Position numbers and translations under genes: made by a program. Shown piece by piece: positions 5,067-59,812 of a DNA stretch of 64,000 nt (positions within the stretch are counted from its first letter, which is position 1; each line of letters starts with the position of its first letter). The notes under the pieces are model-generated. The model searched no databases, was not told the origin of the DNA, and saw only the letters and a program-made list of their open reading frames with translations. Location: sequence record MH791411.1; one strand, written 5' to 3'. This stretch comes from Escherichia phage Ecwhy_1.

Positions 5067-5684
5067 TTATTTTTCAAGTTTATCAATAATAGAAGGTGAT
5101 ACTTTTACATTGAATTCAGAATCAGGAAAATCTTTAGAAAATGAATCAATTTGTTCTTGTGAAAGTTCTTCTTTTTGTGGAAATAACATTTTAACTAAAT
5201 TTTTACCACATTCAATTGCTTCATCATACGACATAGTTTCCCATGTTCCATGCCAAGTACTAGGTTCATATTCTGTCAGTACAGAAATGAAATCAATATC
5301 ATCGGGTGTATACCAAACAGCATTTTGATTCCCTGATGGTGCTGATTGATTTTTACCTAATAAAACAATTGGCTTTTCATAAGGAATGTTAAATATCAAC
5401 CCAGATTCTAAGTTAAGAACAGTTTGAATAGATGAACCCTCCAATTTTGGAGTAATAGTACCATCCTTAAAGAAAATTTGTACATGACCCAAGAGTGGGG
5501 TTTCATATGGTGTAAGTACATTTTCAGAAACTGATGTGGGTTTTGCCGTTGTGAAAATACCAGATGGGGTGACCATTAATTTATTATCAAAATTCTGATA
5601 ATGCAATTCACTATCCACATCATAATGATAAATGTCTAGATTTGGTTGAGATAGTAGTAATTTTGCTAAATCATGAGATTTCAT
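5067..5684 (-). CDS. hypothetical protein, paralog of 3740..4327
   Basis: Start moved to internal ATG at 5684 (MKSHDLAKLL) by paralog alignment and GGAG-type RBS upstream; track start 5714 lies inside a terminator hairpin. Confidence 0.5.
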   Translation of the reverse strand: MKSHDLAKLLLSQPNLDIYHYDVDSELHYQNFDNKLMVTPSGIFTTAKPTSVSENVLTPYETPLLGHVQIFFKDGTITPKLEGSSIQTVLNLESGLIFNIPYEKPIVLLGKNQSAPSGNQNAVWYTPDDIDFISVLTEYEPSTWHGTWETMSYDEAIECGKNLVKMLFPQKEELSQEQIDSFSKDFPDSEFNVKVSPSIIDKLEK

Positions 5685-5693
5685 TTTATTTCT

Positions 5694-5725
5694 CCAAAAG
5701 AAAAGGAGAGTCACAATGACTCTCC
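5694..5725 (-). terminator. putative intrinsic terminator
   Basis: 9-bp stem GGAGAGTCA/TGACTCTCC with CAA loop, followed on the minus strand by a T-rich run; sits after gene 5733..6173. Confidence 0.4.
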
Positions 5726-11550: not shown

Positions 11551-12060
11551 TTAACCACCGTACTTTGACTTATATGTTTCTAAAGATAAAGAAATGCGAT
11601 TTTGCTTTTTAATTCTTTCATCAATATCCTTTGAATTCTTAACACTTCTGTATACATCAGCTAATAAATTATAATCTTCTTTATTTGAGCTATGTAATGC
11701 CCAACCTATATCTGTTTTGATTCGAACATATGCTTTATTTGATGTGAAATAAAAATTGAATCCGTTAGACCCATCAAAAATATCATAAGTATTTACCCAA
11801 TCTCCATAAGGAAAACTCATTGGTACTGACTCATAATCAATGGTGATATCCGATAAATTTTTAGAACAGTACTTTACAAAGTGGTAAACAATCGGATCAC
11901 ATTTTGATAATTCGTATTTGTATTCAATGATAGTTTTTCTATTAGTATCATTGATGGCATATTCTTTTATCAATGGACTTTTTTTGATGATAAGAGTCCA
12001 TAGAAACGATTCTAATCCAGTTTCATCAACTTTTTCTTTCTTTTTGAAAAATGAAATCAT
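11551..12060 (-). CDS. hypothetical protein, tandem paralog family member 3
   Basis: Shares ...TNRKTIIEYKYELSK... block with 12057..12578 and 12585..13151. Confidence 0.5.
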   Translation of the reverse strand: MISFFKKKEKVDETGLESFLWTLIIKKSPLIKEYAINDTNRKTIIEYKYELSKCDPIVYHFVKYCSKNLSDITIDYESVPMSFPYGDWVNTYDIFDGSNGFNFYFTSNKAYVRIKTDIGWALHSSNKEDYNLLADVYRSVKNSKDIDERIKKQNRISLSLETYKSKYGG

Positions 12061-12578
12061 TTATATAAACCCTTAATTTTCTGTCTATTATGTATATCAT
12101 TTTGCTGAATTTTCAAATTAGTAAGATTGTGTCTTACACCTTCAACGCCACGCATTATTTGTAACATAATTAGTGATTCGTCATATGTTAGAACATTGCT
12201 ATTATTATCGATATATACTTTCACTCCACTTTCAAGATAATCATTTTCTTTGGAGTTAAAGTTTCTAATAGCAAACTTAACGCCATTTGTTGCATCACTG
12301 AATACATATCGTTCCGCACCGTAGAATGTTTTTCCACGAAATAAACCGCCTTCTTCAAACTTCCAACGACTGGATTCATAATCATTAACGTAATCAATGA
12401 TTAATGGTAGCAAAGGGTGTTTGCTCAATTTATATTTTGCTTCTAACAGAACACGACGATCTTGATCTGTATTGATGATATCTTTAAGTGTGAAACTTTT
12501 TGATATAATTTTAAAGATAATTTCATGCCAAATTAAAGTACTGTTTTGTTTTCCAACTGGGCCAAAAAACATATTCAT
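12057..12578 (-). CDS. hypothetical protein, tandem paralog family member 2
   Basis: TDQDRRVLLEAKYKLSK ... SSRWKFEEGGLFRGKTFYG aligned to neighbours. Confidence 0.5.
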   Translation of the reverse strand: MNMFFGPVGKQNSTLIWHEIIFKIISKSFTLKDIINTDQDRRVLLEAKYKLSKHPLLPLIIDYVNDYESSRWKFEEGGLFRGKTFYGAERYVFSDATNGVKFAIRNFNSKENDYLESGVKVYIDNNSNVLTYDESLIMLQIMRGVEGVRHNLTNLKIQQNDIHNRQKIKGLYK

Positions 12579-12584
12579 TCCTCA

Positions 12585-13151
12585 TTAGTATAAATCAGTA
12601 ATGTCTTTGTATGCATTAATCTGTTTTTGTTGTAATGAAAGTTCATTGAGTTTAGTTACCATTTTATCTACACCAACACGTATATAGAAAATAATAAATG
12701 AATCTAACTTGCCTAGAGTAATTCTTGAACTGTAAGTTGAAAGTTTTCTTGCATAAACATAAATTTCTTCTTCACTTGGTAAACGTTTCTCAATCAGCAA
12801 GTTTTCCACACCATTCGGCTCATAATCAATCTCGAACTCTACGCCTATCACAGTATCTTGAATGATATCAGTATATGAACCACCGAAAAAAAACTCTCTT
12901 GGTTTGGTTCTCCAACGAGGACTAAATGGGTCAGATGCGTATTCTTTTACAAATTTGTAAAAGGACATTTTACTGAGCATATACTTCATCTCAATTAGTG
13001 CTTTGCGGTCATCATCAGTTTTAAACTCTGCTTTGAGCGATGGACTTTTACACAGTAACTTAACTAAATTGTTGTACATCTTTAATGTACGTTGGTCTTT
13101 CATTTCTTGGATTTTGTGACGCTTTGGTGGTGGTAGTAAAGATTTGACCAT
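12585..13151 (-). CDS. hypothetical protein, tandem paralog family member 1
   Basis: TDDDRKALIEMKYMLSK ... SPRWRTKPREFFFGGSYTD aligned to neighbours. Confidence 0.5.
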   Translation of the reverse strand: MVKSLLPPPKRHKIQEMKDQRTLKMYNNLVKLLCKSPSLKAEFKTDDDRKALIEMKYMLSKMSFYKFVKEYASDPFSPRWRTKPREFFFGGSYTDIIQDTVIGVEFEIDYEPNGVENLLIEKRLPSEEEIYVYARKLSTYSSRITLGKLDSFIIFYIRVGVDKMVTKLNELSLQQKQINAYKDITDLY

Positions 13152-13221: not shown

Positions 13222-15951
13222 TTAATGCCAACGTGTACCAGAGCTTGAAGGAACACCAGTACTTGCGGGGATAGCAGAACCACGCTTGGTCGTACTAGGT
13301 CTGTATGTCAAGAATCGGGTTACCTTTTCAGTATCAATTGACGTAATACTCGTACTTCCAGTAACAATATCACCAACATATACGTTTGTCAATGTCTCAT
13401 CAAGAAGAGTTGTACTGATAACGTATGCCGCTTTTCTTGTGTTACGGTTCATTTGAATGTAAAGATAAAAAGTACTGTTAGCTGGGTTAGTTTTAATAGT
13501 ACTTAATTCTATGGTTTGAATCGCCAATCTATCAAACATACCACCAAGGAATACCGGAACTTCACGGGTGAAGTACACAGTGAAACCTTCAGCAACATCT
13601 TGTGAAACTACTACGATTTTATCTTGTACAGTTCCTGAACCATCAATCAACCCATCCATCTGTGCTGATGTTGTCCCAAAGAGACTAAACACTGCTTTAG
13701 TTTGATAATCTGAATCTTGAAGATGATAGTATCCAAATCCAACACCTGGTATAACTCCGTGCTGGAATGCATTGCCATTATCTATGTAGCTGGATGACAT
13801 AAATCGGTTAGATGTAATCAAACCATTCACTGTTTTAGCAATCATCAATTTGAATTGAGCATTACCAGGTTGTGAAAACTGATGAACTGCATCAACACCA
13901 ATATAACCAAAACCAGAATACTTAGCAACAGTTAGACCAGTACAGCGTTTCATATAGGCTTCGGTTACAATACCTGTTACAGAATTAAGTGTTTCGTATC
14001 TAGAACTCACCATAGACGCAGAACTAATATTGGTTCCTGAAACCGTGACATCAACTTCAGAATATATTGCATAACCTTGGTTATTTCCTAAGTTATATGC
14101 AGAAACCACCGCAATAGATTTTGAGAAAGAACTATCTGGTACATAATATAAAGCAATTTTACCAGAAAATGCTCCTACTATTCCAATATTAGCAAGTATT
14201 TCTTGTTTTAATGTTTCCAGAACATTATCACCAATTGTATAAGAACCATCAAATTCTAAAGTATCTGGGTTAAACAAACCACCACTTGTTTTGTATACAC
14301 CTTCAATGAATGATGTCCCATAACATTTAACTGAACCGTCAGTATCAATTAGTGAAATCATACCTGTATATTTGAAATCATCACCAAGACGAGTTCGGTT
14401 AGCTTGTGGTGCAAAACCATTAAGTGTTGTATTGTTTTGTACTGAATTGAACTGGAAGGTTGGATCAGTACCAATTTCAGAAAATACTGTATTGTTATAA
14501 CCATATGACTCATCTTCATATGTTCCAGAACATGCTAACAGTACTTTACGTTTATCAATAAAACGTGTTCCTAAAAGGTTTTCACCTACTGCACTACCAT
14601 ATGTTGGGGCAACGTTTACAAATTTAGAATTGTTCGCTTTGCGAGTACTGGCAACCCAACTATCATATGGTGTTCCTGTTACGTTATAAACCTGAATACC
14701 ATAGGTTTCAGAAGAACTCCAACGAGCACGTGTGCTGAATACTAAACCGTCATAGGTTTGGCATATAGAACCAACGTTACCTAATTGTGGAACACCTAAC
14801 TGTGTACCCATGAAGTTATTCATCTCAATGGCAAATGGGTTTGTTAGTGTGAATCCATCAACATCATTATATTCCGCTGCTATTGGTGCTCTACTACTTC
14901 CATCAATTGATAATGATTTAGAGTTGATAGTATAAACAAAACTAAAACCACTAGCATAAACAGTACTAATATATAGATTTGATACTAAACGGTTAGTTGG
15001 GAATAATGTAATTCTAATCTTTGATAAATCTGGACTTACGTTTGCTTGTATATTATAATCTGTATAATCTGAATATTCAACTCGTGTAACTGGTGAAGTG
15101 CATTCAAATAATGAATCACTACTAGTTCCAACTGAATATAATCTTTCATAAATTTTCAAATTATTAGCACTTGTGTAGTTAACACTTCTTAAGGTTTGAC
15201 CAGAAAAACCAGTAACCTTAGCAAAAGTACTCATAGTACCATCTTTAATACTACTTGTATTAACAGTATATAATGTTAAAGCCAAACCATAGTTTGCTAT
15301 AGTAGTGTCTTTGCACCACACAAATACTTTATCATTAACGATATGTGCATACAATGGTTTATCTGTACCAAATGATGTAGCAGCGATAGAAGCGTGAATA
15401 TGTGCAACTTCGTTAAATGTACCATTTGTTAAAGTGAAAATATAATTACTTGCACTAGATAGGCTAACTAGTAATTCATAACCATTCGTTCCGATGAACT
15501 GTTTAACATTTTCAGTACTTGGAAGAATTCTAGGATGATATTTTGATGTAGTACTGATAACACTACTTTGTGTTAGTGCATCAATATTACGCAAATCACG
15601 AATGAATGCATAGTAATATCCTTCAGTACTACCATTTGTACCAGCACGTAATACCACACCAGTACCATCATCTTCGACTATTGTTGGTTGCATACGGTAT
15701 ACATCTGAAAGCGACGTTGCCCCTTCGTATGAACCATTAACGTTTAATGGTAGATAATCCATTTCCCCTATACGGGAGATTGGTAACATATCAAGTATTT
15801 TTTGAACTTCTGATCTTTTATAAATTGGATAGTCAACAATACCTGTATTTGCGTCTGGTGCTGTACCATTAAAAGTACGCATAGCGTACTTTCCACCAAT
15901 TGCCAAATTTCCAAGTATAGCAGCACTACCAATGATGCGTTTGGATGACAT
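13222..15951 (-). CDS. tail fibre / receptor-binding protein
   Basis: 909 aa, Ser/Thr/Gly/Asn/Tyr-rich fibre-like composition; shares N-terminal LPIS..G..YLP block and C-terminal ~130-aa block ending YRPSTTKRGSAIPASTGVPSSSGT with two adjacent genes. Confidence 0.55.
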   Translation of the reverse strand: MSSKRIIGSAAILGNLAIGGKYAMRTFNGTAPDANTGIVDYPIYKRSEVQKILDMLPISRIGEMDYLPLNVNGSYEGATSLSDVYRMQPTIVEDDGTGVVLRAGTNGSTEGYYYAFIRDLRNIDALTQSSVISTTSKYHPRILPSTENVKQFIGTNGYELLVSLSSASNYIFTLTNGTFNEVAHIHASIAATSFGTDKPLYAHIVNDKVFVWCKDTTIANYGLALTLYTVNTSSIKDGTMSTFAKVTGFSGQTLRSVNYTSANNLKIYERLYSVGTSSDSLFECTSPVTRVEYSDYTDYNIQANVSPDLSKIRITLFPTNRLVSNLYISTVYASGFSFVYTINSKSLSIDGSSRAPIAAEYNDVDGFTLTNPFAIEMNNFMGTQLGVPQLGNVGSICQTYDGLVFSTRARWSSSETYGIQVYNVTGTPYDSWVASTRKANNSKFVNVAPTYGSAVGENLLGTRFIDKRKVLLACSGTYEDESYGYNNTVFSEIGTDPTFQFNSVQNNTTLNGFAPQANRTRLGDDFKYTGMISLIDTDGSVKCYGTSFIEGVYKTSGGLFNPDTLEFDGSYTIGDNVLETLKQEILANIGIVGAFSGKIALYYVPDSSFSKSIAVVSAYNLGNNQGYAIYSEVDVTVSGTNISSASMVSSRYETLNSVTGIVTEAYMKRCTGLTVAKYSGFGYIGVDAVHQFSQPGNAQFKLMIAKTVNGLITSNRFMSSSYIDNGNAFQHGVIPGVGFGYYHLQDSDYQTKAVFSLFGTTSAQMDGLIDGSGTVQDKIVVVSQDVAEGFTVYFTREVPVFLGGMFDRLAIQTIELSTIKTNPANSTFYLYIQMNRNTRKAAYVISTTLLDETLTNVYVGDIVTGSTSITSIDTEKVTRFLTYRPSTTKRGSAIPASTGVPSSSGTRWH

Positions 15952-15967: not shown

Positions 15968-16555
15968 TTACCAGCCTAATGTACCAGTTTGTGTTGGATT
16001 TCCAGTACTGACTGGGAAAGATGAACCTTTTTGTGTTGTACTTGGTCTGTATGTATTGAATCGTGATACGCGTTCAATGTTGATAGCAGTAATACCAGAA
16101 GTTCCAACGGTAATAGTCCCGATGAACATTATAATCTGTGATTCTTGTAATTGTGAAGTTGAGATTCTATAAATTGGCTCTCCCAGTACTAAAGTAGCGT
16201 ATACATATTGTGTTTGTGTGCCTGATGCCACTGTTGGTGCTGTCACTGCAACAACAGGGTAATTATAAAGATAGCCACCGATGAATGCAGGTATCTCTCG
16301 GTTAAAACGTAATGAATAACCGCTTGATGTAATTGACAAACTAGATACATCATAAAGTTCACCATATTGTGATAATGGTAAACCGTTAACAATAGAATCA
16401 ACTTCATCTTTTGTTAAGAGGGGGAATGTACATTCCCCATTTGCGTCTGTTCGATACGATACGTCATTAATATCACTAATAGATAGTCCAGTGTTTTTAT
16501 TCTGGACTACGATTTGTGACATAGCTTCGATATCGGATCTTATAATATATGCCAT
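15968..16555 (-). CDS. short tail-fibre-like protein
   Basis: 195 aa; carries only the shared N-terminal (LPLSQYGELYDV) and C-terminal (RFNTYRPSTTQKGSSFPVSTGNPTQTGT) blocks of the flanking fibre genes. Confidence 0.5.
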   Translation of the reverse strand: MAYIIRSDIEAMSQIVVQNKNTGLSISDINDVSYRTDANGECTFPLLTKDEVDSIVNGLPLSQYGELYDVSSLSITSSGYSLRFNREIPAFIGGYLYNYPVVAVTAPTVASGTQTQYVYATLVLGEPIYRISTSQLQESQIIMFIGTITVGTSGITAINIERVSRFNTYRPSTTQKGSSFPVSTGNPTQTGTLGW

Positions 16556-16567
16556 AAGATTAATCCT

Positions 16568-19264
16568 TTACCAATTGATTGTTCCTGTTTGTGACGGTAG
16601 ACCATAACTAACTGGGAATGAAGAACCAGCAGCTTCAAGAGACGCACCGAAAATATCCAATCTTGAACGTTTTTGTATGTTAACATTTGATATTTGTAGT
16701 GAGTTTGTTTGTATAGTACCTATCCAGAAAATATTATATGCTGTAGAACCAGTTTCTGAAATAACATCAGTTGTTATTACATATTTTGCATTACCTTGTT
16801 CCATTTTAACATATACATGAAATAATGTGTTTGCTGGATTAGCCTTAACTGTAGTTAAGTTTATACTAGTAATCGGTAATGTAAATGCTTTACCAGAAAG
16901 AATTACTGGAGTTTCTTCTGTGAAGTACACAATAAAACCTTGAGCAACGTCTTGTGAAACTACGTTAATCGGTGCACCTTGAGCAGTCCAGTTATTATAA
17001 TCAGCAATTGTAGTACCACATTTTTGGAAAGTCATTTTGTTTACATAGTCTATTGCTTGGAAATAACCAAAACCAATACCAGGTAAAGCTGCTGGTTGAA
17101 TACCTTGCTCATAACTTGCATGTGAACCACTGATAATAAAACTATCAAATTGTGCAGTTGCTTTTGTTACATATGCTCTGAATTGGTGTGTGTTTGTATT
17201 ACCAATAGTTGGGTGAGATAATGGGTCAGAACCACCTATGAAGTAGAAAGAACCACCATCATATATTGTTAAACCAACAGAAGACGAAGCAAAACTACCA
17301 TTACCATTTGGTGTAAAGTTACTTCCGTAAACGTTTTCTAGTACTAAACGCTTGAAGGTAATTGTAGTGATATTACCTGAACGTGTATTCACATTCACTT
17401 CAGCAATTCTAATATAGTTCTGATATGTATTTGTAACTGTACTTAGCATTACGAATGCAGGTATATCAGTTTGTTGTGGAACAAACAATGTCATATCTTT
17501 ATAAGCAGCGGAAGATAAGTTCCAGTCGCTTAGTACTTTGGCGTATTCAGCATTTCTGAAATTATCAAGTACAGATTGAGTAACACTAATGATACCAGTT
17601 CCGTTCATATTTTTATCATATGATAGTGATTGGGAATATCTCTGACCTACCATGAATATCCCACCATTTGTAGTAACATTATTACCACTAATGGAACTAA
17701 TAAAAACTCTGTTGTTCGTGTTATCTGTCACATTAGCACGTTCTGTTGTTGGCTCATAACCTTGTATGGTTCCACGTGATAAAGAATTAAACGTAAAGTT
17801 AGGAGTACTTTTATGAACTGCATAAGATGGACGGAATGCACCAGAACCAGTTGAACGAGAATACTGTTTAGTACTGTTCCCTGGAAGCAATTCTACGCCG
17901 TTAATAAAAGAACCAACTGCTGAACCAAATGAAGGACGAACTATGCCATTTCTGAAATCAGTTGAAATGTTCGCACGTACATTAATCATGCTATATATTG
18001 ATTGTGCAGTAAATTTAGCTTTCTGCATAAGCAATGGTTCTGCTAAGTTTGGACATGCAGTACAGAATACTTCACCTGTATTCAGATAATAATATGAACT
18101 GTAAATGTTTCTTGCACCGCTATGGTCATATAAAGGATCTTTGTTGAGAACGTTACCAGTAGCAACCAATGCCGAACCTGTGTTTGTAACAACAAATGGT
18201 GCAGCAAATGTACCAATATCGTTCCCATTATCCAAGTTACATTGTTTAGTACTCATGTTAAAATTGAAACTATAACTATGCTGTGGTCGGGTATTGTAGT
18301 TTGCCATAGTGAACCATGCGTCACCATTCATTCTGAATCGGAAGTTCTGCGTTCCTGGCTCCTGAGCAACATATAAATCGATAGATGTCATATAAATCCC
18401 CATACCAGCCAAATTTTGTGGTACATAGACATATGGCTTATCAGCAATATTAGTTGAGTTAACATGGTCAGTAATGATTATATTATTCTGAGCAGTATAT
18501 GTAGTATTGTAAAAAGTTTTTGTTGTCCATCCCGTGATTCGGGTAGCAGTATAAGTACCGTTTGCAATATTCAATACAACACGAACAACAACAATCTGTA
18601 GTTTGTTATTTTCATTAAGGACGTTGAATACATAAACTGAACCGTCTTCTGCCATCATAGCATACTCAATCCCACCTTCAGGTGAAATATCAGCTTGGTT
18701 CACAAAAAGACCACTATGTTGTGTATCATCCAATGTACCATTCGTTACTGATATAAACAACCCATTAGTATTGGTAGATGTGTCATTGTAACGACCTAAT
18801 AGTATTTTTGAATCAGTATTGTATAAACCAATAGCAACACGGTTTGCCCCAAAATAGCCAGGCTTATACTGACGGCTTGTATTAACAGTACGGCTCATAT
18901 CGGTAACGGATAATGCGTTCGCTAGGTAAGAATAAAATAAACCTTCAACACTACCGTTTGTACCACTACGTAATAGTACTAATGTGCCATCGTTTTCTAA
19001 AAGTATTTTGTTTCTACGTTGGGATTGGTTTTCTGATGCACCATTAAAATCACCAGATACCCCAGCAGGTAGATAGTTATGTGTACCATAATGCGAGATT
19101 GGAAGTAAACTAATTACATCAAGTAATTCTTCTTTGGAATATGTATCAATTTCCATATTACCATTAGCATCAAATACTTGATCATTGATGCCCTGTACTG
19201 TTCTTTTCCCTTTAACTGTCACATTATGAGTGACGTCTAAGCCACCATATATTTTCTTTGACAT
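16568..19264 (-). CDS. tail fibre / receptor-binding protein
   Basis: 898 aa; fibre-like composition; N-terminal LPISHYGTHNYLP and C-terminal VYFTEETPVILSG...SSFPVSYGLPSQTGT blocks shared with 13222..15951. Confidence 0.55.
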   Translation of the reverse strand: MSKKIYGGLDVTHNVTVKGKRTVQGINDQVFDANGNMEIDTYSKEELLDVISLLPISHYGTHNYLPAGVSGDFNGASENQSQRRNKILLENDGTLVLLRSGTNGSVEGLFYSYLANALSVTDMSRTVNTSRQYKPGYFGANRVAIGLYNTDSKILLGRYNDTSTNTNGLFISVTNGTLDDTQHSGLFVNQADISPEGGIEYAMMAEDGSVYVFNVLNENNKLQIVVVRVVLNIANGTYTATRITGWTTKTFYNTTYTAQNNIIITDHVNSTNIADKPYVYVPQNLAGMGIYMTSIDLYVAQEPGTQNFRFRMNGDAWFTMANYNTRPQHSYSFNFNMSTKQCNLDNGNDIGTFAAPFVVTNTGSALVATGNVLNKDPLYDHSGARNIYSSYYYLNTGEVFCTACPNLAEPLLMQKAKFTAQSIYSMINVRANISTDFRNGIVRPSFGSAVGSFINGVELLPGNSTKQYSRSTGSGAFRPSYAVHKSTPNFTFNSLSRGTIQGYEPTTERANVTDNTNNRVFISSISGNNVTTNGGIFMVGQRYSQSLSYDKNMNGTGIISVTQSVLDNFRNAEYAKVLSDWNLSSAAYKDMTLFVPQQTDIPAFVMLSTVTNTYQNYIRIAEVNVNTRSGNITTITFKRLVLENVYGSNFTPNGNGSFASSSVGLTIYDGGSFYFIGGSDPLSHPTIGNTNTHQFRAYVTKATAQFDSFIISGSHASYEQGIQPAALPGIGFGYFQAIDYVNKMTFQKCGTTIADYNNWTAQGAPINVVSQDVAQGFIVYFTEETPVILSGKAFTLPITSINLTTVKANPANTLFHVYVKMEQGNAKYVITTDVISETGSTAYNIFWIGTIQTNSLQISNVNIQKRSRLDIFGASLEAAGSSFPVSYGLPSQTGTINW

Positions 19265-45091: not shown

Positions 45092-45397
45092 TCATGAGAT
45101 TCGCATTTCATCCAGATATAAACTACATGCTTCGAAATTGTTGTCAGCACTTAAACCTAAATCAACCATCAGACCACAATGCGTTCCACAGAATTTCTTT
45201 ATGTATAGTTTCTTATTGTTTGTACCTAAGTCGTATACATATTCATTTTCGAAAATAGTTTTTAAATCATTACAAATACTTTTTACTATCTTCATTACAT
45301 CATTATGATACTCATATGGTATTCCATCTAGTTCATCAATGATAATAGCAAAACCATTGTCATAGTACTTTAGTTTATTGAATGTTTGTATATCCAT
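45092..45397 (-). CDS. hypothetical protein
   Basis: Track ORF, 101 aa. Confidence 0.45.
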   Translation of the reverse strand: MDIQTFNKLKYYDNGFAIIIDELDGIPYEYHNDVMKIVKSICNDLKTIFENEYVYDLGTNNKKLYIKKFCGTHCGLMVDLGLSADNNFEACSLYLDEMRIS

Positions 45398-45694
45398 TTA
45401 ATATATAATCTCACTTACTTCTATGGTGTAGACACCATCATCAGTCATTAATCTAACTGCAACTTTAATATTACTAGACATTCGTGTAACTATCAATCCA
45501 ATAATTATACCATTCTTTAAAGTACCATTATGGTATCTAACTTTTACTTCAGTTTTATTATCAATTAAGTATCTTCTAATTATGTGTATTTCCGTTCTAA
45601 ACAGTTCTAAATAAACTTCACTATACTCCTTATCAGAACCATCAGCACAGCTATACAATAAATGTACCTGTTCTAACAAAAGTTTTAAATTCAT
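45398..45694 (-). CDS. hypothetical protein
   Basis: Track ORF, 98 aa. Confidence 0.45.
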   Translation of the reverse strand: MNLKLLLEQVHLLYSCADGSDKEYSEVYLELFRTEIHIIRRYLIDNKTEVKVRYHNGTLKNGIIIGLIVTRMSSNIKVAVRLMTDDGVYTIEVSEIIY

Positions 45695-46050
45695 AAGAAC
45701 CTCACAGATTTAATATTACTTGTTACATGTTTAAACACAGTGTTATCGAACTTGTAAACAATTGTATTAAGTGATTTATGAAAATTAACCTCGCACACTA
45801 ATGCCTTGGAACCATTGATTGTACAGACCGTGGATGGTAAGTTGTTTGCTAATATCTCTTTTTCATCTAAACATAGTGAACTAATACAATCATAATAGAG
45901 AGGTTCAAGAACTTTTTCAGTACTAAGAAAATCGAAAGCAAGATCATCTATTTGTTTTATGTAATTGAATAAATTTTGATAGTACTCATTCATGGTCGAT
46001 CCTCTTGAATTTAGCATTATTCGAATAAGTATATGAATGTCCAAAATCAT
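45691..46050 (-). CDS. hypothetical protein
   Basis: Track ORF; start probably internal ATG (MNEYYQNLF) near 45993. Confidence 0.45.
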   Translation of the reverse strand: MILDIHILIRIMLNSRGSTMNEYYQNLFNYIKQIDDLAFDFLSTEKVLEPLYYDCISSLCLDEKEILANNLPSTVCTINGSKALVCEVNFHKSLNTIVYKFDNTVFKHVTSNIKSVRFL

Positions 46051-46497: not shown

Positions 46498-46742
46498 TAC
46501 AATAATCCTCTCACATAAAACATTGATGAAAATAGATAATCTTCAGTACTAGAATTTAGTAGTTTATCAAAACTATATTTTTTATGCTTATTTTTATACA
46601 AAGACATTCTATAGAATCTTTCTATATTTTCTAAGTATTCATTTCGTAATAACATCTGTGTTGTTACATTCACTATAATGTACCTTAAAAGAAAAAGGGA
46701 CCAATATATGATCCCTTTTGTATTAGAAATTACCTTCAGCAA
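46497..46742 (-). CDS. hypothetical protein
   Basis: Track ORF, 81 aa. Confidence 0.4.
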   Translation of the reverse strand: MLKVISNTKGIIYWSLFLLRYIIVNVTTQMLLRNEYLENIERFYRMSLYKNKHKKYSFDKLLNSSTEDYLFSSMFYVRGLL

Positions 46743-47655
46743 CTTGCATTACTTTCAACCCAAGTAGCTTACGCCACATGAATACAACTTGTGATCTATC
46801 ATCATAAACCTTTTTAACATCGTAATGATCAACCACATTTTTCATGTACAGGTCGAATTTTACAACATCATCAGGACGTTTGTCATCGATGCCTCGCATA
46901 AACAACGCATCATAAGGAACACCCCAATTCTTAAGCCACTGTTCGGTATCAGCACGACACCCTTCAGTACGCCCACTCATGACGATAATCTTGCGTTTAT
47001 GAAAAACTGCTTCAGCGATAACAGATAAAATAACTTCTTCGTCTGGTGTATCCTGGAGTACAGTACTTTCATCGAACGGGTTACGTCCCCATTTATGAGC
47101 AAGAGTACCGTCGATATCAACGATAATAGCAGCTTCTCGTGAATTACCATAGTAACCAATGTGTAATGCCTTACTATAATAGTACGTATCTGCCATAGTG
47201 TCAATGATATTATCTTGTACTGAACGCTCACGCTGGAGGTTATATTTCTTACAAAGTTTTACGAACTCTTTAATCTTAAAGAATTCATGAACATCTGCAC
47301 CACGGTCTTCATTAGGTACAAAATCATCATAGAAGTTCTTTTCTTTGTAATCATAACCATTATCTATAGCCCATACTTTCCATAGATTACGGAAATGTTG
47401 TTTAAGGTTCGTATCGGATATGATGATGTTCCAACCATTCTCTGCTGCTGAATTTGCTGCACTGAACTGTAAATTAGTTACGTACTGCTCATTAGCATCG
47501 TTGAATTTGTAAGCATCATGTGACCCAGCCATAGATTCACGAATATCATCACGGTTGATGTTGATAGTCTTGGATTTGGCTTTTTTAATCTCTTGCACTG
47601 CCCATGTAGTTTTACCACACCCAGGCAATCCAACTGTTAGTGTGATAGTTGGCAT
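46723..47655 (-). CDS. pnk: polynucleotide 5'-kinase / 3'-phosphatase (T4 PseT-like)
   Basis: N-terminal P-loop TVGLPGCGKTTWA; HAD-type phosphatase motif AAIIVDIDGTLAH in C-terminal half; 310 aa. Confidence 0.85.
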   Translation of the reverse strand: MPTITLTVGLPGCGKTTWAVQEIKKAKSKTININRDDIRESMAGSHDAYKFNDANEQYVTNLQFSAANSAAENGWNIIISDTNLKQHFRNLWKVWAIDNGYDYKEKNFYDDFVPNEDRGADVHEFFKIKEFVKLCKKYNLQRERSVQDNIIDTMADTYYYSKALHIGYYGNSREAAIIVDIDGTLAHKWGRNPFDESTVLQDTPDEEVILSVIAEAVFHKRKIIVMSGRTEGCRADTEQWLKNWGVPYDALFMRGIDDKRPDDVVKFDLYMKNVVDHYDVKKVYDDRSQVVFMWRKLLGLKVMQVAEGNF

Positions 47656-48477: not shown

Positions 48478-49620
48478 CTAAAAATCCTTTAGTACAATTT
48501 TCATGTACTTAATAAGAGTCTCTTTGTAATCGACTTTCTTATTGTTGTACATTGCAAAGGCCAAGCCCTGACGATTCAGTTCATTAGTTAAACACTCCTG
48601 AACCTTCTTAGCGAATTCCTTTCGCTCCAAGTGCTTGTGTTCCTTGACGAAGCTTTCAACTTCATCTTGTAAAGCATTATAGCACGAAAAGACTAGTTGT
48701 TCCATTCTTAATATCTTTTGGGTAGCATATTCGTCAGTACTGAACAACTGTTTTAAATCATCACTCGAACCATTTAATACAGCTTCATATAAATGGGAAT
48801 CGAATATAATACTGTCTTTCGTTAAATGCAAAGAACAATACCAGTCGGTTTTGATTTTGCACATTGTACCATTATTTAGGATGCACACAAAACCTTCAAT
48901 GTCAAGCATTTTCTTAACTTCTTCAACACTTTCTTTGAATGTAGCACGAACAGGGAAAGTGTAATGAATATCTTTACCTGTCATGTTAGTACTGTACTGT
49001 GCAAGGCATGGAAACTTGTTACGTAATGCAGAACCACATAATAGTTCACCACTCTTGCGATGGCGAACGTTTAGTACAAATATTTGTTCAACCTGGTATG
49101 GTAATACAATACGGTACTCTGGACTTGTATACTCCAGATTAACAGTATAGCCCAAACGGTCTGCTTCGTCAATGTATTGATACAAATTTTGGTTCTCATT
49201 GAGAAGACGAGTACTGTTAATCGCATGGTCTGAATACAATGCAGTATGTGATTTACAACGAATTACACCATCATTATCACGGTAAGTACTGATTACTGAA
49301 CCATCCAACTTAGGCATCACTACTGCAATGTCATCGAATGTGGTATCAGCAGGGAACATTGTAGCAGGATTTTCGTAAGCATTGAAGAACTTTTTCATAG
49401 TACGAGCAGCACAACGAATCATATCACCGTCTTCATCAATTTCCCACATAGAACCACGGGTTTCTAATGCATTGGGTTGCATGAAATCGGTATATGATGC
49501 TAGACGATAACTGAATACACGATATGTTCCACCAGCAGGACTTTTATGATCCACATAAAAGAAAGCCTCACGAGTATTACATAAGTGCATTAAATCTTCA
49601 TATATTTGTAAAAGGGTCAT
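48478..49620 (-). CDS. rnlA: RNA ligase 1 (T4 gp63-like)
   Basis: FFYVDHKSPAGGTYRVFSYRLASYTDFMQPNALETRGSMWE parallels T4 Rnl1 [41 protein letters not shown]; motif I lysine in PKLDGSVISTY; 380 aa. Confidence 0.85.
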   Translation of the reverse strand: MTLLQIYEDLMHLCNTREAFFYVDHKSPAGGTYRVFSYRLASYTDFMQPNALETRGSMWEIDEDGDMIRCAARTMKKFFNAYENPATMFPADTTFDDIAVVMPKLDGSVISTYRDNDGVIRCKSHTALYSDHAINSTRLLNENQNLYQYIDEADRLGYTVNLEYTSPEYRIVLPYQVEQIFVLNVRHRKSGELLCGSALRNKFPCLAQYSTNMTGKDIHYTFPVRATFKESVEEVKKMLDIEGFVCILNNGTMCKIKTDWYCSLHLTKDSIIFDSHLYEAVLNGSSDDLKQLFSTDEYATQKILRMEQLVFSCYNALQDEVESFVKEHKHLERKEFAKKVQECLTNELNRQGLAFAMYNNKKVDYKETLIKYMKIVLKDF

Positions 49621-52300: not shown

Positions 52301-52441
52301 TATGTAAAGTAAATCCTAAACCAACACCTACGAATGGGAATAGTAAATTAATGTACCAGACATTCATTGTCGAAAGGAAACAAATCCCACTTACTGTCAG
52401 TACTGCTAGTGAGAAAAGACTCCAGATAAAAAATAATGCTC

Positions 52442-52732
52442 TCATAAAAATGTTACCTCGTTAGATGGGTAGTTACGATATATTTGTGAATTATGTTCCA
52501 CACCATGAATTGTTATATGCCCGTTGTAGAAAAAAGTAATATCTACAACTTTGAGTTCTTTACGTTTTTTAGTACTGAAATATCTACCCACTAACGCAGC
52601 ATATATATAATCCCTGTACTCTTGAGTAATGAATTTATACATATTATGATTTGCACTACACTTTTCATCATAAGTATTAGTATATTCTTTCATCAGTATA
52701 GCATATGTTTTTTGTATCAATATAATATTCAT
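52442..52732 (-). CDS. hypothetical protein
   Basis: Track ORF, 96 aa. Confidence 0.45.
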   Translation of the reverse strand: MNIILIQKTYAILMKEYTNTYDEKCSANHNMYKFITQEYRDYIYAALVGRYFSTKKRKELKVVDITFFYNGHITIHGVEHNSQIYRNYPSNEVTFL

Positions 52733-52992
52733 CTATAGTTTAATATTGAAATGGGTAGACTATATATATGTACGTAAAGTTTATCAACTCTTTCCATATT
52801 CACTTTTAAAGTACTTCCAAGACGACTGATGCTATCTATGCGATAAAGCACGTCATTCAGCATCATTACGGTATCGGTGTAATCTTCACTAAGAGATTCA
52901 ATGTAGATATCTTCAAGTTTCACATCCGTGCGTGGGATATCTAAATCCCTCAATAAACGCAGTGTTTGCACGATCAGTTCAGCTTTAGTCAT
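52729..52992 (-). CDS. hypothetical protein
   Basis: Track ORF trimmed to internal ATG (MTKAELIVQ) at 52992 so it no longer overlaps the zinc-ribbon gene by 130 nt. Confidence 0.4.
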   Translation of the reverse strand: MTKAELIVQTLRLLRDLDIPRTDVKLEDIYIESLSEDYTDTVMMLNDVLYRIDSISRLGSTLKVNMERVDKLYVHIYSLPISILNYR

Positions 52993-53185
52993 GGATACGC
53001 TCACAATTAAGGCAATAAATGCACTCAATGTCAGGTCGCCATGATTTATCAAAATCTTTGTGCTGTTCTTCAGTGTATTCCGAATCATCATTGATGGGAA
53101 AGAAATCACCAGCACCAGTGGCCCAGTCTGAATCTAAACGGAAACGAGCTAATTGAGTACTGTTGCAATATGGACATTTATTCAA
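52985..53185 (-). CDS. small zinc-ribbon protein
   Basis: CPYCNS ... CIYCLNC, two CxxC pairs; 66 aa. Confidence 0.45.
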   Translation of the reverse strand: MNKCPYCNSTQLARFRLDSDWATGAGDFFPINDDSEYTEEQHKDFDKSWRPDIECIYCLNCERIHD

Positions 53186-53462
53186 AATTTATTCCTTCTA
53201 ACTGATATACGTTTAATGAAAATGACCCACTATTATTATCGCATCTGAAACACAGTGTTAAAGAACCATTAAAACTAACAACATCAGTACATATACATTT
53301 TTCACCATTGGATATGATAGATTTTCCTATATATAAATCTCTTACTATAGTACGGTAATGTTGCCATAAAAAATAATACACACTTTCATAGTACTCATCT
53401 TTTACATATGACAAGTATAAGAATTTATAAAATACTTGTATTTCCTTTAAGTTGTTTTTCAT
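53178..53462 (-). CDS. hypothetical protein, tandem five-member paralog family
   Basis: N-terminus MKNNLKEIQVFYKFLYL matches M..NLNDIQFTYKFLY of the four upstream genes. Confidence 0.5.
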   Translation of the reverse strand: MKNNLKEIQVFYKFLYLSYVKDEYYESVYYFLWQHYRTIVRDLYIGKSIISNGEKCICTDVVSFNGSLTLCFRCDNNSGSFSLNVYQLEGINFE

Positions 53463-53736
53463 TCTCCAACTCCAGTAAATTTACACCAATCCAATCAACA
53501 TCACTATCAGTACTTAATTCCAATCGTAGCTTACCGCTATGACTAACAATATCGCGGAATTTGTATATTTTATTATCACGAACTATACACAAATCATGGT
53601 AATATTCATGTAATTCATCCAAAAACTTTATCCATACCGAACGATAGATTTCACCGTAGAGATATTCTCCAGCATCAACCGTAGCGTATTGGATATACAA
53701 AAATTTGTATGTGAATTGTATATCATTAAGATTCAT
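53425..53736 (-). CDS. hypothetical protein, tandem five-member paralog family
   Basis: MNLNDIQFTYKFLYIQY. Confidence 0.5.
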   Translation of the reverse strand: MNLNDIQFTYKFLYIQYATVDAGEYLYGEIYRSVWIKFLDELHEYYHDLCIVRDNKIYKFRDIVSHSGKLRLELSTDSDVDWIGVNLLELENEKQLKGNTSIL

Positions 53737-53746
53737 ATGTCAATCC

Positions 53747-54058
53747 TTATAGGTCCGTTAACTTCAAAACTTTGATCTCCATAAATTCCCTATCAGTTTT
53801 TTCAAGAAATTCTACATGGATAATACCTTGATAAGATTTGACACCTGAATATTCGAATATATCATCTCCATCAGTGTAAGTACTGTAATTCTTTTTTATA
53901 TATTCAGCAATAGAATCTAAGTAATCATAGTAATTATGAATAAATGGTGATTCTTTTGATTCTACATGTTCACCAATCTTCCCACTAAAAAGATACATGT
54001 CATACAAACCGTATATATTTTTATATGTGAATTGAACATCATTCAAATTTAATTTCAA
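53747..54058 (-). CDS. hypothetical protein, tandem five-member paralog family
   Basis: MKLNLNDVQFTYKNIYGLY. Confidence 0.5.
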   Translation of the reverse strand: MKLNLNDVQFTYKNIYGLYDMYLFSGKIGEHVESKESPFIHNYYDYLDSIAEYIKKNYSTYTDGDDIFEYSGVKSYQGIIHVEFLEKTDREFMEIKVLKLTDL

Positions 54059-54315
54059 GGGAATATCTCCAGAGGAACACTCGTAAATCCAAAATCTGTG
54101 AAGAACTGTACCTCAACTTTACCATCGAGCTTAATGATTATATCTGAAAATTCTGCATGATCGTTATTAATAATTACAGTACTGAATTTTTCTTTAATCC
54201 TCTCACGCACAGTATTAATCATTTCATTACATGTATCTTCTAAAAATATACTATTATTTTTATTTGCTAGGTCACGAATGCACTTGAATGTTAATTGGAA
54301 ATCTTTATAATTCAT
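54055..54315 (-). CDS. hypothetical protein, tandem five-member paralog family
   Basis: MNYKDFQLTFKCI; weakest member. Confidence 0.45.
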   Translation of the reverse strand: MNYKDFQLTFKCIRDLANKNNSIFLEDTCNEMINTVRERIKEKFSTVIINNDHAEFSDIIIKLDGKVEVQFFTDFGFTSVPLEIFP

Positions 54316-54581
54316 ATATTCACCAAATCCACAGAGAATAGGTCGTTATCAAATTTATATGAAAGTACTAATCTACCACCGAAACTATCTACTCTAAGTA
54401 TCTTTCGTTTTTTTCCATTAATGACAATTTCAGTATTAACAAAATACTCACGTAATTCTTCTAGATAATTTGACCATATTTTATGGGTAAACGCATTTTT
54501 ATTAATTGTGTTAGTACTTCGGTGATTGTGGTGTAATTTAAATAATTCCATATAAGTGAATTGTATATGTTTGTAATTCAT
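54312..54581 (-). CDS. hypothetical protein, tandem five-member paralog family
   Basis: MNYKHIQFTYMELFKL. Confidence 0.5.
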   Translation of the reverse strand: MNYKHIQFTYMELFKLHHNHRSTNTINKNAFTHKIWSNYLEELREYFVNTEIVINGKKRKILRVDSFGGRLVLSYKFDNDLFSVDLVNI

Positions 54582-54627
54582 ATTTCCCCTTACAAAAATA
54601 GCCCGAACTTATGTCGGGCTATATGTA

Positions 54628-55242
54628 TTATTCATCGTCATCATCGTCGTCGAGATCTAGGTAAATGTCACTATCACCATCATCGAAGTACTCAACCACT
54701 ACACCAGGAATGTTCAGTGCTGTGAACATCGCATCATATTTTTCATCAGATGGGATAAGAACAAACTCATCAATGCTTTGAATTTCAGGCATACGATCTT
54801 CAGGAATACCCATTTGCAATAAGGATTGGATGATTTTTTCTTTGTATTCTTGGAACTTCTCTTCTGATTCAAAATCCATAATAAGTTGTGCTACATAACC
54901 ATCTTCGTTACCAAATGCGATTGACATTTGTGCATCAGTACCGACATATGACCATGTACGCTTGCCAGTATTTTTCTCAATGAAGTTCTGAATTTCAAGA
55001 ACGATTTCATGACGAGAACTATTGGCAATGTTGTTAAGGTTAGCAACACCAGCAATAATTTCTGAACTGTCATTGGATTCTTCGAATGTGCCATAGTCAC
55101 CTAATACATATTGAACACCATCACAATGTAATGCATATGCATAATCCAAATCAGCAAGTGAATCACACTTACCACGGATTGGGCGTAGGGAAAGCCCTAG
55201 GCGAAGATAACGAAAATATGTATTAGTATTTGTATTTGTCAA
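54628..55242 (-). CDS. hypothetical protein with poly-Asp C-terminus
   Basis: Track ORF begins at a TTG; start moved to in-frame TTG at 55242, 7 nt after AAGGAG; C-terminus DLDDDDDDE. Confidence 0.45.
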   Translation of the reverse strand: MTNTNTNTYFRYLRLGLSLRPIRGKCDSLADLDYAYALHCDGVQYVLGDYGTFEESNDSSEIIAGVANLNNIANSSRHEIVLEIQNFIEKNTGKRTWSYVGTDAQMSIAFGNEDGYVAQLIMDFESEEKFQEYKEKIIQSLLQMGIPEDRMPEIQSIDEFVLIPSDEKYDAMFTALNIPGVVVEYFDDGDSDIYLDLDDDDDDE

Positions 55243-55531
55243 CGTAATGCTCCTTAACAATATAAAAGTAGTTGCTGTTGTTGTCAAAAAAGATGACTAA
55301 TCCTTTGTAGACATTTACACCAATCTTGATTTGGCATATTTTATTCGATTTACAAGCCTCAGTCAATAACATTTTGTGCTCTTTACTGAAAGTGTGGAAG
55401 AGTGGTTTTACATGCCACATCTCCACACCATCTAGTACTGGAAAATGTTCACTGAATTTGATCATTGATTCTTGCAAAAAATAACCTGTTAGATTTGAAT
55501 CATCAGACATGTAAGTTCGCCAGGAAGTCAA
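55223..55531 (-). CDS. hypothetical protein
   Basis: Track ORF, 102 aa. Confidence 0.45.
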   Translation of the reverse strand: MTSWRTYMSDDSNLTGYFLQESMIKFSEHFPVLDGVEMWHVKPLFHTFSKEHKMLLTEACKSNKICQIKIGVNVYKGLVIFFDNNSNYFYIVKEHYVDKYKY

Positions 55532-55796
55532 TTACTTCGTCATGTGTTAACTTATCACTACGCTCTAGAACATTGATGATGAATGGTGTTTGACTATATA
55601 ATTCAGCCAGAAACGCAACTTCATCAGATGTATAAGAATATCCCATAGGAACAACTTGTGCAGTCCAGTTTCCTAAAGTTTTGTTTGCAATGATTGCAAC
55701 CACCGTATTACCTTTGAATTCAACATGGATTGAACGGAAACCCGAATCCTCATTCTGATCCCAAAGTACTGGGTTAGTTTTAAACAGTACTGACAT
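55503..55796 (-). CDS. hypothetical protein
   Basis: Track ORF, 97 aa. Confidence 0.45.
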   Translation of the reverse strand: MSVLFKTNPVLWDQNEDSGFRSIHVEFKGNTVVAIIANKTLGNWTAQVVPMGYSYTSDEVAFLAELYSQTPFIINVLERSDKLTHDEVIDFLANLHV

Positions 55797-55798
55797 AG

Positions 55799-56332
55799 TT
55801 ATTTCCTCATGTATTTTATTACATCTTCAAATAGTTTAGTTTTCAGTGCATCATCATTACCAGGTAGAAAAGTACTGAAGCTATTAAAATCTTCATTCTT
55901 GGCAAACTCACGCATCTGTGTGGAACTGTAGCGACTTATATTTCGGTCAATTCCAGCTTGAACTGCCTTGATTGAACAAAAATTATATAACTTCCCATTG
56001 TACGTGTCAAGTGTTTTTTGGAATGGTTCAAGTCTATCTGAACCACATATGAAAAGAACATCTAAGTACTTTCCATCCAGTTCTCTCATTATATCAAACA
56101 GATTATCTTCTGTATAGATATTTTCTTGTACAGATGGGTAAAATCCTTCTGTATAGTACATTTTCAGTTCAGGAGGTAATGGGTTTTTGATGGCATCAGT
56201 ACTGGTACTAAGGAATATTTTCAAATCAGCATTGTACTGTTCTTGTAGTGCTTGAGCTTTTTCAAACACTAAACCATGACCTCGATGTACAGGGTTAATT
56301 CTTCCGAATGTCACTACGCATGTTTCTTTCAT
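55799..56332 (-). CDS. nicotinamide/nicotinate mononucleotide adenylyltransferase-like nucleotidyltransferase
   Basis: FGRINPVHRGH (cytidylyltransferase-type H-x-G-H motif) and ISRYSSTQMRE (S-x-T-x-x-R region); 177 aa. Confidence 0.6.
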   Translation of the reverse strand: MKETCVVTFGRINPVHRGHGLVFEKAQALQEQYNADLKIFLSTSTDAIKNPLPPELKMYYTEGFYPSVQENIYTEDNLFDIMRELDGKYLDVLFICGSDRLEPFQKTLDTYNGKLYNFCSIKAVQAGIDRNISRYSSTQMREFAKNEDFNSFSTFLPGNDDALKTKLFEDVIKYMRK

Positions 56333-56853
56333 ATGTTCTTCATCACCTGACCAATAGATTTAAGATGGTTGATTTTAGCTGGAGTCAAATACTTATCCAG
56401 TACTATTAAACAACTAGGGAATGGAGCACTGTCAGTCTTTTTATCTGGTTCTTCAGGGATACCGAACTTTAAGCGACCTTTTATAAAACAAATACAATCA
56501 CAAACTTTCGCAGCATAATCCTGAAAGGCTATAGTATCAGTTCTTGATGGTACGAGAATCAGTACTGTAGCACCTTTGTTATATGCATCAACTGCCTTAG
56601 ATAACCACGTTTTCAAATCACTGTACGGTGGGTTGAGCCACACGATATTGTTTCCCCAGTCCTGTTCAAGTGAATTGTCTTCTGGTGTAAAGAAATTATC
56701 ACACAATGCTGTTTCTTTAACACATGCTGCATCTAGTGTAAATCCCCAGAGTTCATCCAAATCTTCAAAGAAATCCTTTGGAGTAGTCCAGTTATCTTTC
56801 CCAGTACTGAAATGTACTGATTGTTTTTTCTTCGAAGCATCCTTCTTCGACAT
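56329..56853 (-). CDS. dam: phage Dam-family DNA N6-adenine methyltransferase
   Basis: WTTPKDFFEDLDELWGFTLDAAC ... DWGNNIVWLNPPYS ... LVPSRTDT ... IKGRLKFG, catalytic NPPY motif. Confidence 0.8.
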   Translation of the reverse strand: MSKKDASKKKQSVHFSTGKDNWTTPKDFFEDLDELWGFTLDAACVKETALCDNFFTPEDNSLEQDWGNNIVWLNPPYSDLKTWLSKAVDAYNKGATVLILVPSRTDTIAFQDYAAKVCDCICFIKGRLKFGIPEEPDKKTDSAPFPSCLIVLDKYLTPAKINHLKSIGQVMKNI

Positions 56854-59741: not shown

Positions 59742-59812
59742 CTATATCTCCATTTATCAAAAAAAGATGTGAACATTATATCACAAGGAATTGTCATGTC
59801 CACAATATTTTA

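Follow-up and report, generated by a model that had tools for sequence, protein, structure and literature searches.

A family of small tandem paralogs with a common predicted fold in Asteriusvirus-like jumbo phages

The 64,000-nucleotide stretch of Escherichia phage Ecwhy_1 analysed here (sequence record MH791411.1), hereafter called the window, carries on its minus strand an array of five adjacent small genes encoding paralogous proteins of 86-103 amino acids (aa). Named E, D, C, B and A in their order from 54581 to 53178, they correspond to g167-g171 of Escherichia phage fEgEco12, where all five are annotated as 'hypothetical protein'. Their similarity stems from homology of the proteins and not from a DNA signal in common, and with two remote relatives, g173 and F, they probably form a block of seven related genes (five core and two remote). 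The family belongs to no described protein family, its memberships being limited to unannotated PHROGs. It is confined to Asteriusvirus-like phages, in which it occupies one syntenic site between the gene for Dam methylase and those for Rnl1 RNA ligase and polynucleotide kinase/phosphatase (PNK). At this site, it has undergone birth-and-death turnover and cassette-like replacement of single genes between otherwise near-identical genomes.

The window has a G+C content of about 34%, and nearly all of its coding lies on the minus strand. Over region 52400-55600, the window matches Escherichia phage fEgEco12 (PP777464), a member of the genus Asteriusvirus (PMC13070987), and WPEC3 at 100% identity; with about 30 further jumbo coliphages and Salmonella phages of the 121Q/PBECO4 group, the identity is 84-98%. 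The block and the hairpin preceding it are listed below in the direction of transcription, with isoelectric points (pI) and the E values obtained with the family profile.

54598-54622, minus strand: terminator-like hairpin with T-run, after the stop codon of g166, ending 16 nt before the ATG of E
54312-54581, minus strand: paralog E, first gene of the array, 89 aa, pI 9.5; family profile E = 1e-30
54055-54315, minus strand: paralog D, most divergent core member, 86 aa, pI 4.8; family profile E = 2e-25
53747-54058, minus strand: paralog C, 103 aa, TTG start, pI 4.8; family profile E = 6e-28
53425-53736, minus strand: paralog B, 103 aa, pI 4.9; the slot singly replaced in WPEC5
53178-53462, minus strand: paralog A, 94 aa, pI 5.8, four cysteines; family profile E = 5e-31
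52985-53185, minus strand: Zn-ribbon gene g172, between A and g173, 66 aa, CPYC...CLNC, TTG start
52729-52992, minus strand: g173, 87 aa, probable remote family member by hhalign and shared motifs
52442-52732, minus strand: F (g174), 96 aa, pI 8.95, remote family member by profile, hhalign and structure model

Only a Shine-Dalgarno sequence lies between the hairpin and the ATG of E. The stop codon of E overlaps the start of D as ATGA, and that of D overlaps the TTG start of C as TTGA, while C and B are spaced by 10 nt. B and A overlap by 38 nt, so that the final 12 residues of B are encoded, in another frame, by the conserved N-terminal codons of A. The stop of A overlaps the TTG start of the Zn-ribbon gene, and g173 and F follow downstream with further overlaps.

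Homology and predicted fold of the block proteins

Pairwise BLASTP comparisons linked A to B (9e-9), A to E (7e-8), B to E (3e-7), B to C (1.5e-6) and C to D (5e-3), the last of these connecting D to the family. A broader family profile recovered all five core types in each genome examined, with E values of 1e-23 to 1e-34. At identities of 17-32% between paralogs, the core proteins align collinearly from end to end, and their homology is not limited to the N-terminus. The conserved N-terminal motif is N-x-x-D-[IVL]-Q-F-T-Y-K, and a second conserved block, V-x-S-x-x-G-x-L-x-L-x-F, lies in the beta part and includes the turn glycine Gly68, the single invariant residue of the family. In paralog C, an insertion of 10 residues separates helix 1 from helix 2.

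The first-pass annotation, made from the sequence of the window, had reported five adjacent minus-strand open reading frames (ORFs) of 86-103 aa with near-identical N-terminal peptides, and both the genes and the peptides were found as described. Its picture of shared N-termini followed by divergence was half right: the N-terminal similarity is real, but the proteins continue to align to their ends, through the second block. Nor does the diversification concentrate at the C-terminus, since the highest variability lies in helix 2 and its loop and the beta part holds a conserved block. The serial tandem duplication that it proposed is confirmed, and a neighbour-joining (NJ) tree places the duplications far back in time. 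The family is not limited to the five genes of the array, as g173 and F are remote members.

The same annotation had named a shared overlapping regulatory sequence as the alternative to protein homology, and the codon positions speak against it. Over codons 2-14, pairwise identity at positions 1, 2 and 3 was 0.69, 0.75 and 0.41, and identity over the 30 nt preceding the aligned starts was 26%, a random level, against 30% expected from composition. With conservation far higher at positions 1 and 2 than at position 3, and with no similarity beyond the start codon on its upstream side, the N-terminal likeness reflects protein homology. It could be argued that the repeated 5′ ends are instead a DNA or RNA signal (a promoter, a translation-initiation element or a recombination site) of which the peptide likeness is a by-product. 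A 34-nt direct repeat does occur in four copies, at the 5′ ends of B, C, D and E, with 71-79% identity, and the D-I-Q-F codons spell TACAAT, which before B gives an 11/12 match to the sigma70 consensus. This repeat is the coding sequence for the shared N-terminus, and lineages in which DNA divergence is saturated still retain the peptide motif. Half of the lineages lack the -35 element before B, an Rfam search matched no family, and the homology covers the whole protein beyond the 5′ ends; together with the codon pattern, these results leave the signal explanation very little room.

AlphaFold2 (AF2) modelling of B gave a predicted local distance difference test score (pLDDT) of 84 and a predicted template modelling score (pTM) of 0.74. 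In this model, helices at residues 3-18 and 22-45 are followed by strands at 50-53, 56-66, 69-75 and 82-86, then by a short helix and a last strand. The model of F, built from F orthologs only (pLDDT 90.9, pTM 0.78), has helices at 3-19 and 27-47 and strands at 51-53, 60-67, 73-79 and 85-89, and thus shares with B the element order helix-helix-strand-strand-strand-strand. These confident models predict a single architecture for the family, in which an N-terminal helical hairpin packs on a 4-5-stranded beta-sheet. Alignment and structure prediction, both proposed at the first pass as checks, therefore agree on full-length homology and on a common predicted fold in B and F. The proteins are taken to be soluble: they have negative grand average of hydropathy (GRAVY) values, pI values from 4.8 to 9.5 and no predicted helix of membrane-spanning length.

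Comparison of the B model with the PDB by Foldseek returned nothing below E = 0.09. The weak matches of the beta half were nearly all to barrels of the SH3/Tudor/WYL type (PafBC, Mfd-RID, CarD, PcrA Tudor, eIF5A, integrase C-terminal domain and Rof). Assignment to an SH3/Tudor-like RNA-polymerase-interacting domain (CarD_CdnL_TRCF type) or to a WYL domain was rejected, as no structural or sequence-profile match to either was significant. CarD/Mfd-RID, the PcrA C-terminal Tudor domain and WYL, which gave the best of these weak matches, are a lead only, and none of them has an equivalent of the N-terminal helical hairpin. In the BFVD, the B model returned members of its own family, a 96-aa slurp01 protein with template modelling (TM) scores of 0.68-0.72 and, as weaker neighbours, small proteins of RaK2 and other phages. 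The slurp01 match has the length of the slurp01 F ortholog PSLUR01_00329 and may be the same protein.

No family member matched Pfam-A at the curated cutoff or any annotated PHROG significantly, and the best E value in a sequence-profile search of the PDB was 0.96. The Pfam and PDB searches, which would have caught those members of known anti-defence families (Ocr, Arn, Tad, Acb, Gad, Acr and others) that have a Pfam entry or a solved structure, found none, no dedicated anti-defence library having been searched. Within PHROGs, B and C fall in phrog_21004 (2e-44 and 4e-35), E in phrog_32291 (5e-31), D in phrog_35943 (6e-45) and F in phrog_28826 (8e-28), all labelled 'unknown function', and A has no strong family (best 1.6e-4). 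PHROGs thus distributes the family over four or more groups that look unrelated, whereas profile, profile-profile and structure-prediction evidence unites them here, together with g173, in one superfamily.

The N-terminus of F, MNIILIQKTYAIL, resembles that of the core proteins. So does that of g173, which reads MTKAELIVHTYKMI in the 121Q-type allele and ...VQTLRLL... in the allele of the window; g173 further shares the TYK motif and a 'YIGKS...DV' block with the family. A profile built from the core proteins only detected F and its orthologs in five loci with E values of 6e-5 to 6e-3 (6e-5 for the F of the window), and g173 orthologs with values of 2.5e-5 to 0.09, depending on the lineage. 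Using hhalign, F aligned with the core family over 78 collinear columns (E = 8e-5, probability 61%) and g173 over only 46 (E = 2e-6, probability 89%). The value of 4e-13 obtained for g173 with the superfamily profile is circular, as g173 sequences are part of that profile. Judged by profile matches and the predicted fold, F qualifies as a member of the family, and g173 is a probable one. For F, assignment to PF25742 (Phage_Gene33) was rejected: the match (17.6 bits, E = 0.0047) lies under the gathering threshold of 27 bits, and only 2 of the 32 superfamily members match this family at all.

When the rest of the window was scanned for further members, only a 98-aa ORF at 45398-45694 (minus strand) gave a borderline full-length match to the superfamily profile, with E of about 1e-3; among the reversed-sequence controls, the best value was 0.03. 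The ORF lies in a run of ORFs of about 100 aa (45092-46050), a second cluster of small genes. This ORF may be a very distant relative and is not claimed as a member.

Distribution, turnover and selection

Among 5.8 billion clustered proteins, profile searching returned 26 matches. An exhaustive HMMER search with the five-member profile against 1.84 billion representative proteins gave 17, with syntenic orthologs and paralogs down to E = 6e-29. The real matches are proteins of 83-105 aa from Asteriusvirus-like phages or from E. coli assemblies containing such phages. Two 1,200-aa repeat proteins were discarded, a Mycoplasma-type repeat surface protein (P0027, 77 bits over 13 stretches) and an ankyrin-repeat protein (P0036, 44 bits over 6 stretches): at about 6-7 bits per stretch, their scores are sums over repeats and do not indicate homology. 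The superfamily-level profile search reached no annotated protein. All 35 phage records retrieved by tblastn with B were Escherichia or Salmonella jumbo phages. On each contig retrieved for the divergent homologs, the gene order was constant: Dam methylase, nucleotidyltransferase, two small genes, g166, terminator, array, Zn ribbon, g173, F and, further on, Rnl1 and then PNK. The genome papers of fEgEco12, phAPEC6 and Sharanji and keyword searches of the literature yielded nothing on the array genes.

Five core genes are present in fEgEco12, ph0011, slurp01, 121Q, UE-S1, phAPEC6, WPEC5 and several metagenomic lineages. In the NJ tree they form A-, B-, C-, D- and E-type clades that are older than the lineages compared; the retention of ortholog groups and the ancient duplications argue against a recent expansion. 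Copy-number variation among related phages, for which the first-pass annotation had suggested a search, was found. While most genomes have five core genes, contig L017 has three ahead of the Zn-ribbon gene, also present there, and the five genes of the GCA_973721985 lineage are a different mix, with three E-like genes, B and A and no C or D type. The metagenomic lineage L007 contains two F-type genes (1096-1386 and 1595-1885, 49% and 72% identical to the F of the window) separated by a DUF7205 gene, which shows that the F slot also duplicates.

Single genes are exchanged as well. Between WPEC5 and the window, every other gene compared from g173 through g162 is 96-100% identical, but B is only 67% identical. 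The WPEC5 gene is a ph0011-type allele carrying a window-type C-terminal tail, with the breakpoint in the 3′ end of B. In the window itself, A and B are 97-100% identical to those of 121Q and slurp01, whereas C, D and E are 61-76% identical to the genes of these two phages and 82-86% to those of ph0011; these differing affinities imply a breakpoint between B and C. Gene g173 exists as two allele classes with about 32% identity between them, spread independently of overall genome relatedness (one in fEgEco12, ph0011, WPEC5 and L007; the other in 121Q, slurp01, UE-S1 and the GCA lineage). A is 96-100% conserved in most lineages, with alleles of 60% identity in ph0011 and 38% in L008. In the GCA lineage, A and the Zn-ribbon protein retain 96% and 97% identity, and B-E fall to 23-43%.

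The Zn-ribbon gene g172 is the most conserved gene of the neighbourhood, with 95-100% aa identity in all lineages and a ratio of nonsynonymous to synonymous substitution rates (omega) of 0.02-0.07, in striking contrast with the fast-evolving genes around it.

Irregular C genes were seen in two Salmonella-phage assemblies. In SD-6_S16 (P0025), the N-terminal half of a D-type gene is fused to pieces of a C-type gene, and in SD-2_S15 (L006, 4363-4485) C is truncated within a region crowded with annotated ORFs of very short length. Either genuine deletions between paralogs or errors of assembly could account for these genes.

Selection was estimated per ortholog pair by the Nei-Gojobori method (NG86). 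The flanking genes g162-g166 gave omega values of 0.03-0.13. Across individual ortholog pairs of the family, omega ranged from 0.13 to 0.76, with 0.14-0.30 for C, D and E at synonymous divergence (dS) of 0.8-1.8 and 0.45-0.65 for divergent A and B alleles. Within the proteins, helix 1 is the most constrained part (pooled ratio of nonsynonymous to synonymous differences, pN/pS, of 0.35; column entropy 1.53 bits), helix 2 with its loop the least (0.52; 2.21 bits), and the beta part is intermediate (0.45; 2.04 bits). The diversifying selection suggested at the first pass was not borne out, as omega exceeded 1 in no gene or region. The family evolves fast under relaxed purifying selection with frequent allele exchange.

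Genomic and transcriptional context

The features below surround the array or overlap it.

59775-59802, minus strand: further site matching the sigma70 consensus
56329-56853, minus strand: Dam methylase, upstream of the array
55982-56010, minus strand: perfect sigma70 consensus, TTGACA-17-TATAAT, inside g163
55259-55287, minus strand: sigma70-like site, TTGACA-17-TATATT, 17 nt upstream of g166
53715-53743, minus strand: sigma70-like site, TTGACA-17-TACAAT, across the C/B junction, its -10 formed by the D-I-Q-F codons
about 48478-49620, minus strand: Rnl1 RNA ligase (from the annotation of L001), a few kb downstream of the array
about 46723-47655, minus strand: T4-type PNK (from the annotation of L001), a few kb downstream of the array

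Asteriusviruses use the host RNA polymerase together with a sigma factor of their own (PMC7247149; PMC11895373). Matches to the sigma70 consensus at 11-12 of 12 positions are concentrated on the coding strand of the window, with 16 on the minus strand and 1 on the plus strand where a first-order Markov model predicts 2.7 +/- 1.7. Two conserved sites of this type lie 0.7-1.4 kb upstream of the array. At 55982-56010, both hexamers are retained in six lineages despite saturated synonymous sites in g163. The site at 55259-55287, kept in five close lineages and absent from L009, may give rise to transcripts that read through into the array. All lineages have the hairpin at 54598-54622; at the base of its stem, L009 carries T-A in place of A-T, and in L017 the stem is a different one. 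From the arrangement of these sites, early-type transcription would reach the array by read-through of the hairpin, in a delayed-early-like manner. An internal promoter before B (53715-53743) is doubtful, as its -35 element occurs in only 4 of 8 lineages. The literature searched held no transcriptome for the genus Asteriusvirus.

The records of fEgEco12 and 121Q call the gene g163 (55799-56332, minus strand) 'ribonucleotide reductase A', and those of ph0011, UE-S1, phAPEC6 and WPEC5 call it 'cytidyltransferase'. Its one Pfam match is a weak one of nucleotidyltransferase type (FAD_syn, E = 0.002), and the ribonucleotide reductase label looks wrong.

Downstream, Rnl1 and PNK form a tRNA-repair pair that counters the PrrC anticodon nuclease, an anti-Prr role (PMC7247149).

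Possible functions of the block

On balance, we favour the reading that the block proteins are non-enzymatic binding modules, each paralog having a partner of its own, and that they serve as accessory factors in host interaction, takeover or counter-defence. Their small size, the lack of any enzyme signature, the turn glycine as sole invariant residue and the combination of a scaffold with variable surfaces point to binding modules. A role in host interaction is suggested by the non-virion character of the proteins, by an early-type neighbourhood rich in counter-defence genes (Dam, Rnl1 and PNK), by the exchange of cassettes and by the changes in copy number. The link to defence inhibition or host takeover, which the first-pass annotation had raised, comes from genomic context only. 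The proteins would be made early or delayed-early from promoters of the host RNA polymerase. Helix 1 and the beta-sheet would serve as the scaffold, and the variable helix 2, loops and tails would direct each paralog to a separate partner, a host or phage macromolecule. The paralogs would act largely independently of one another.

Several results weigh against this interpretation. Positive selection was not detected by NG86: gene-wide omega never rose above 1, nor did any of the three protein regions compared (helix 1, helix 2 and the beta part) consistently exceed it, so that an arms race is not demonstrated. In most lineages, slot A and the Zn-ribbon gene hardly vary, which suits a housekeeping phage function equally well. 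A conserved terminator stands directly before the array and no promoter is recognisable between it and E, and the case for early-type transcription consists of consensus promoter matches. A non-structural role is supported by phAPEC6, in which the orthologs of the B-E types are gp386c-gp389c and the virion proteome table (62 proteins, PMC7247149) lists no protein from gp37x to gp40x; with proteins so small, however, this absence is weak negative evidence.

The paralogs, possibly with the Zn-ribbon protein, could instead be subunits of one hetero-oligomeric complex whose stoichiometry is set by translational coupling. The ATGA and TTGA stop/start overlaps and the 38-nt overlap would fit such coupling, although overlaps of this kind are common in compact phage genomes. 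The five types are retained as ortholog groups in most lineages, a strongly conserved Zn-ribbon gene lies within the block, and proteins of such mixed charge (pI 4.8-9.5) could pair. Yet WPEC5 has exchanged B for a 67% allele in a genome otherwise 96-100% identical, one lineage holds three core copies, and another lacks the C and D types and has three E-like genes. Swaps of single slots and the three-copy lineage argue against an obligate, fixed hetero-oligomer, and we regard the complex as an improbable solution. We give similarly little weight to the idea that the proteins are small regulators, binding nucleic acid or RNA polymerase through an SH3/Tudor-like beta half and redirecting host transcription or RNA metabolism. 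The barrels weakly matched by the beta half, several of which bind RNA polymerase, would agree with it, as would the basic character of E and F (pI 9.5 and 8.95) and the reliance of the phage on the host RNA polymerase with its own sigma factor (PMC11895373); as reported above, none of these structural matches was significant and the hairpin is foreign to such domains.

It is hardly credible that these genes are spurious ORFs, or duplicates in decay or without function. All are annotated as 'hypothetical', their omega values exceed those of their neighbours, and C is truncated or fused in the two Salmonella-phage assemblies. For C, D and E, however, omega stays far under 1 (0.14-0.3) even though dS is as high as 0.8-1.8, the frames are intact in every good assembly, in lineages down to 23-40% identity, the fold predictions are confident, and the truncations occur in frameshift-rich assemblies.

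The interpretation as accessory host-interaction modules has a bolder form, which we consider rather unlikely: the seven genes would be a new fold family of modular inhibitors, each directed against a different host factor or defence component. If this were true, single-gene allele swaps such as that of B in WPEC5 would be the way in which Asteriusviruses re-tune their host range, and the Zn-ribbon protein, itself invariant, could act as a partner common to them or as a regulator.

Large phages often encode small accessory proteins in tandem families, and in kind the block is ordinary for a jumbo phage. T4-like phages carry hyperplastic regions, blocks of small same-strand accessory ORFs under early promoters between conserved core modules. 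The block resembles them in its packed same-strand small ORFs with overlapping stops and starts, its sigma70 enrichment, its non-virion character, its greater variability than the flanks, its recombination mosaic and its counter-defence neighbours. Unlike them, it consists of one paralogous family with a shared predicted fold instead of unrelated ORFans, its number of slots is unusually stable (mostly five) and a conserved Zn-ribbon gene is embedded in it; its early timing is only deduced. Large DNA viruses also possess tandem host-interaction multigene families, such as the 'gene accordions' and host-range families of poxviruses. The present family shares with these tandem duplication, birth-and-death turnover, lineage-specific copy number and composition, and a fixed locus. 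It differs in showing no sign of recent amplification, with paralogs 17-32% identical and duplications that predate the genus, and in the lack of detectable positive selection. What is new is the union of the genes in one fold family, the conserved module of terminator, array and Zn ribbon, and the documented replacement of a single gene by another allele.

Over 80% of the genes in Asteriusvirus lack an assigned function (PMC7247149). Here, no fewer than five 'hypothetical' genes, and probably seven, are brought from separate PHROGs into one fold family. Relaxed constraint, allele exchange and copy-number change mark the block as a variable part of the genome, probably concerned with host interaction. 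These phages are under development as therapy against avian pathogenic (APEC), uropathogenic (UPEC) and Shiga toxin-producing (STEC) E. coli strains, and the block provides a short, concrete list of genes for work on toxicity, partner binding and host range.

Other paralogous genes occur elsewhere on the minus strand of the window. Three adjacent large ORFs (13222-15951, 15968-16555 and 16568-19264; BLASTP 6e-35, 5e-21 and 5e-15) form another tandem family, and two paralogous pairs lie at 3740-4327 and 5067-5714 (BLASTP 2e-9) and at 12057-12578 and 12585-13151 (BLASTP 1e-13).

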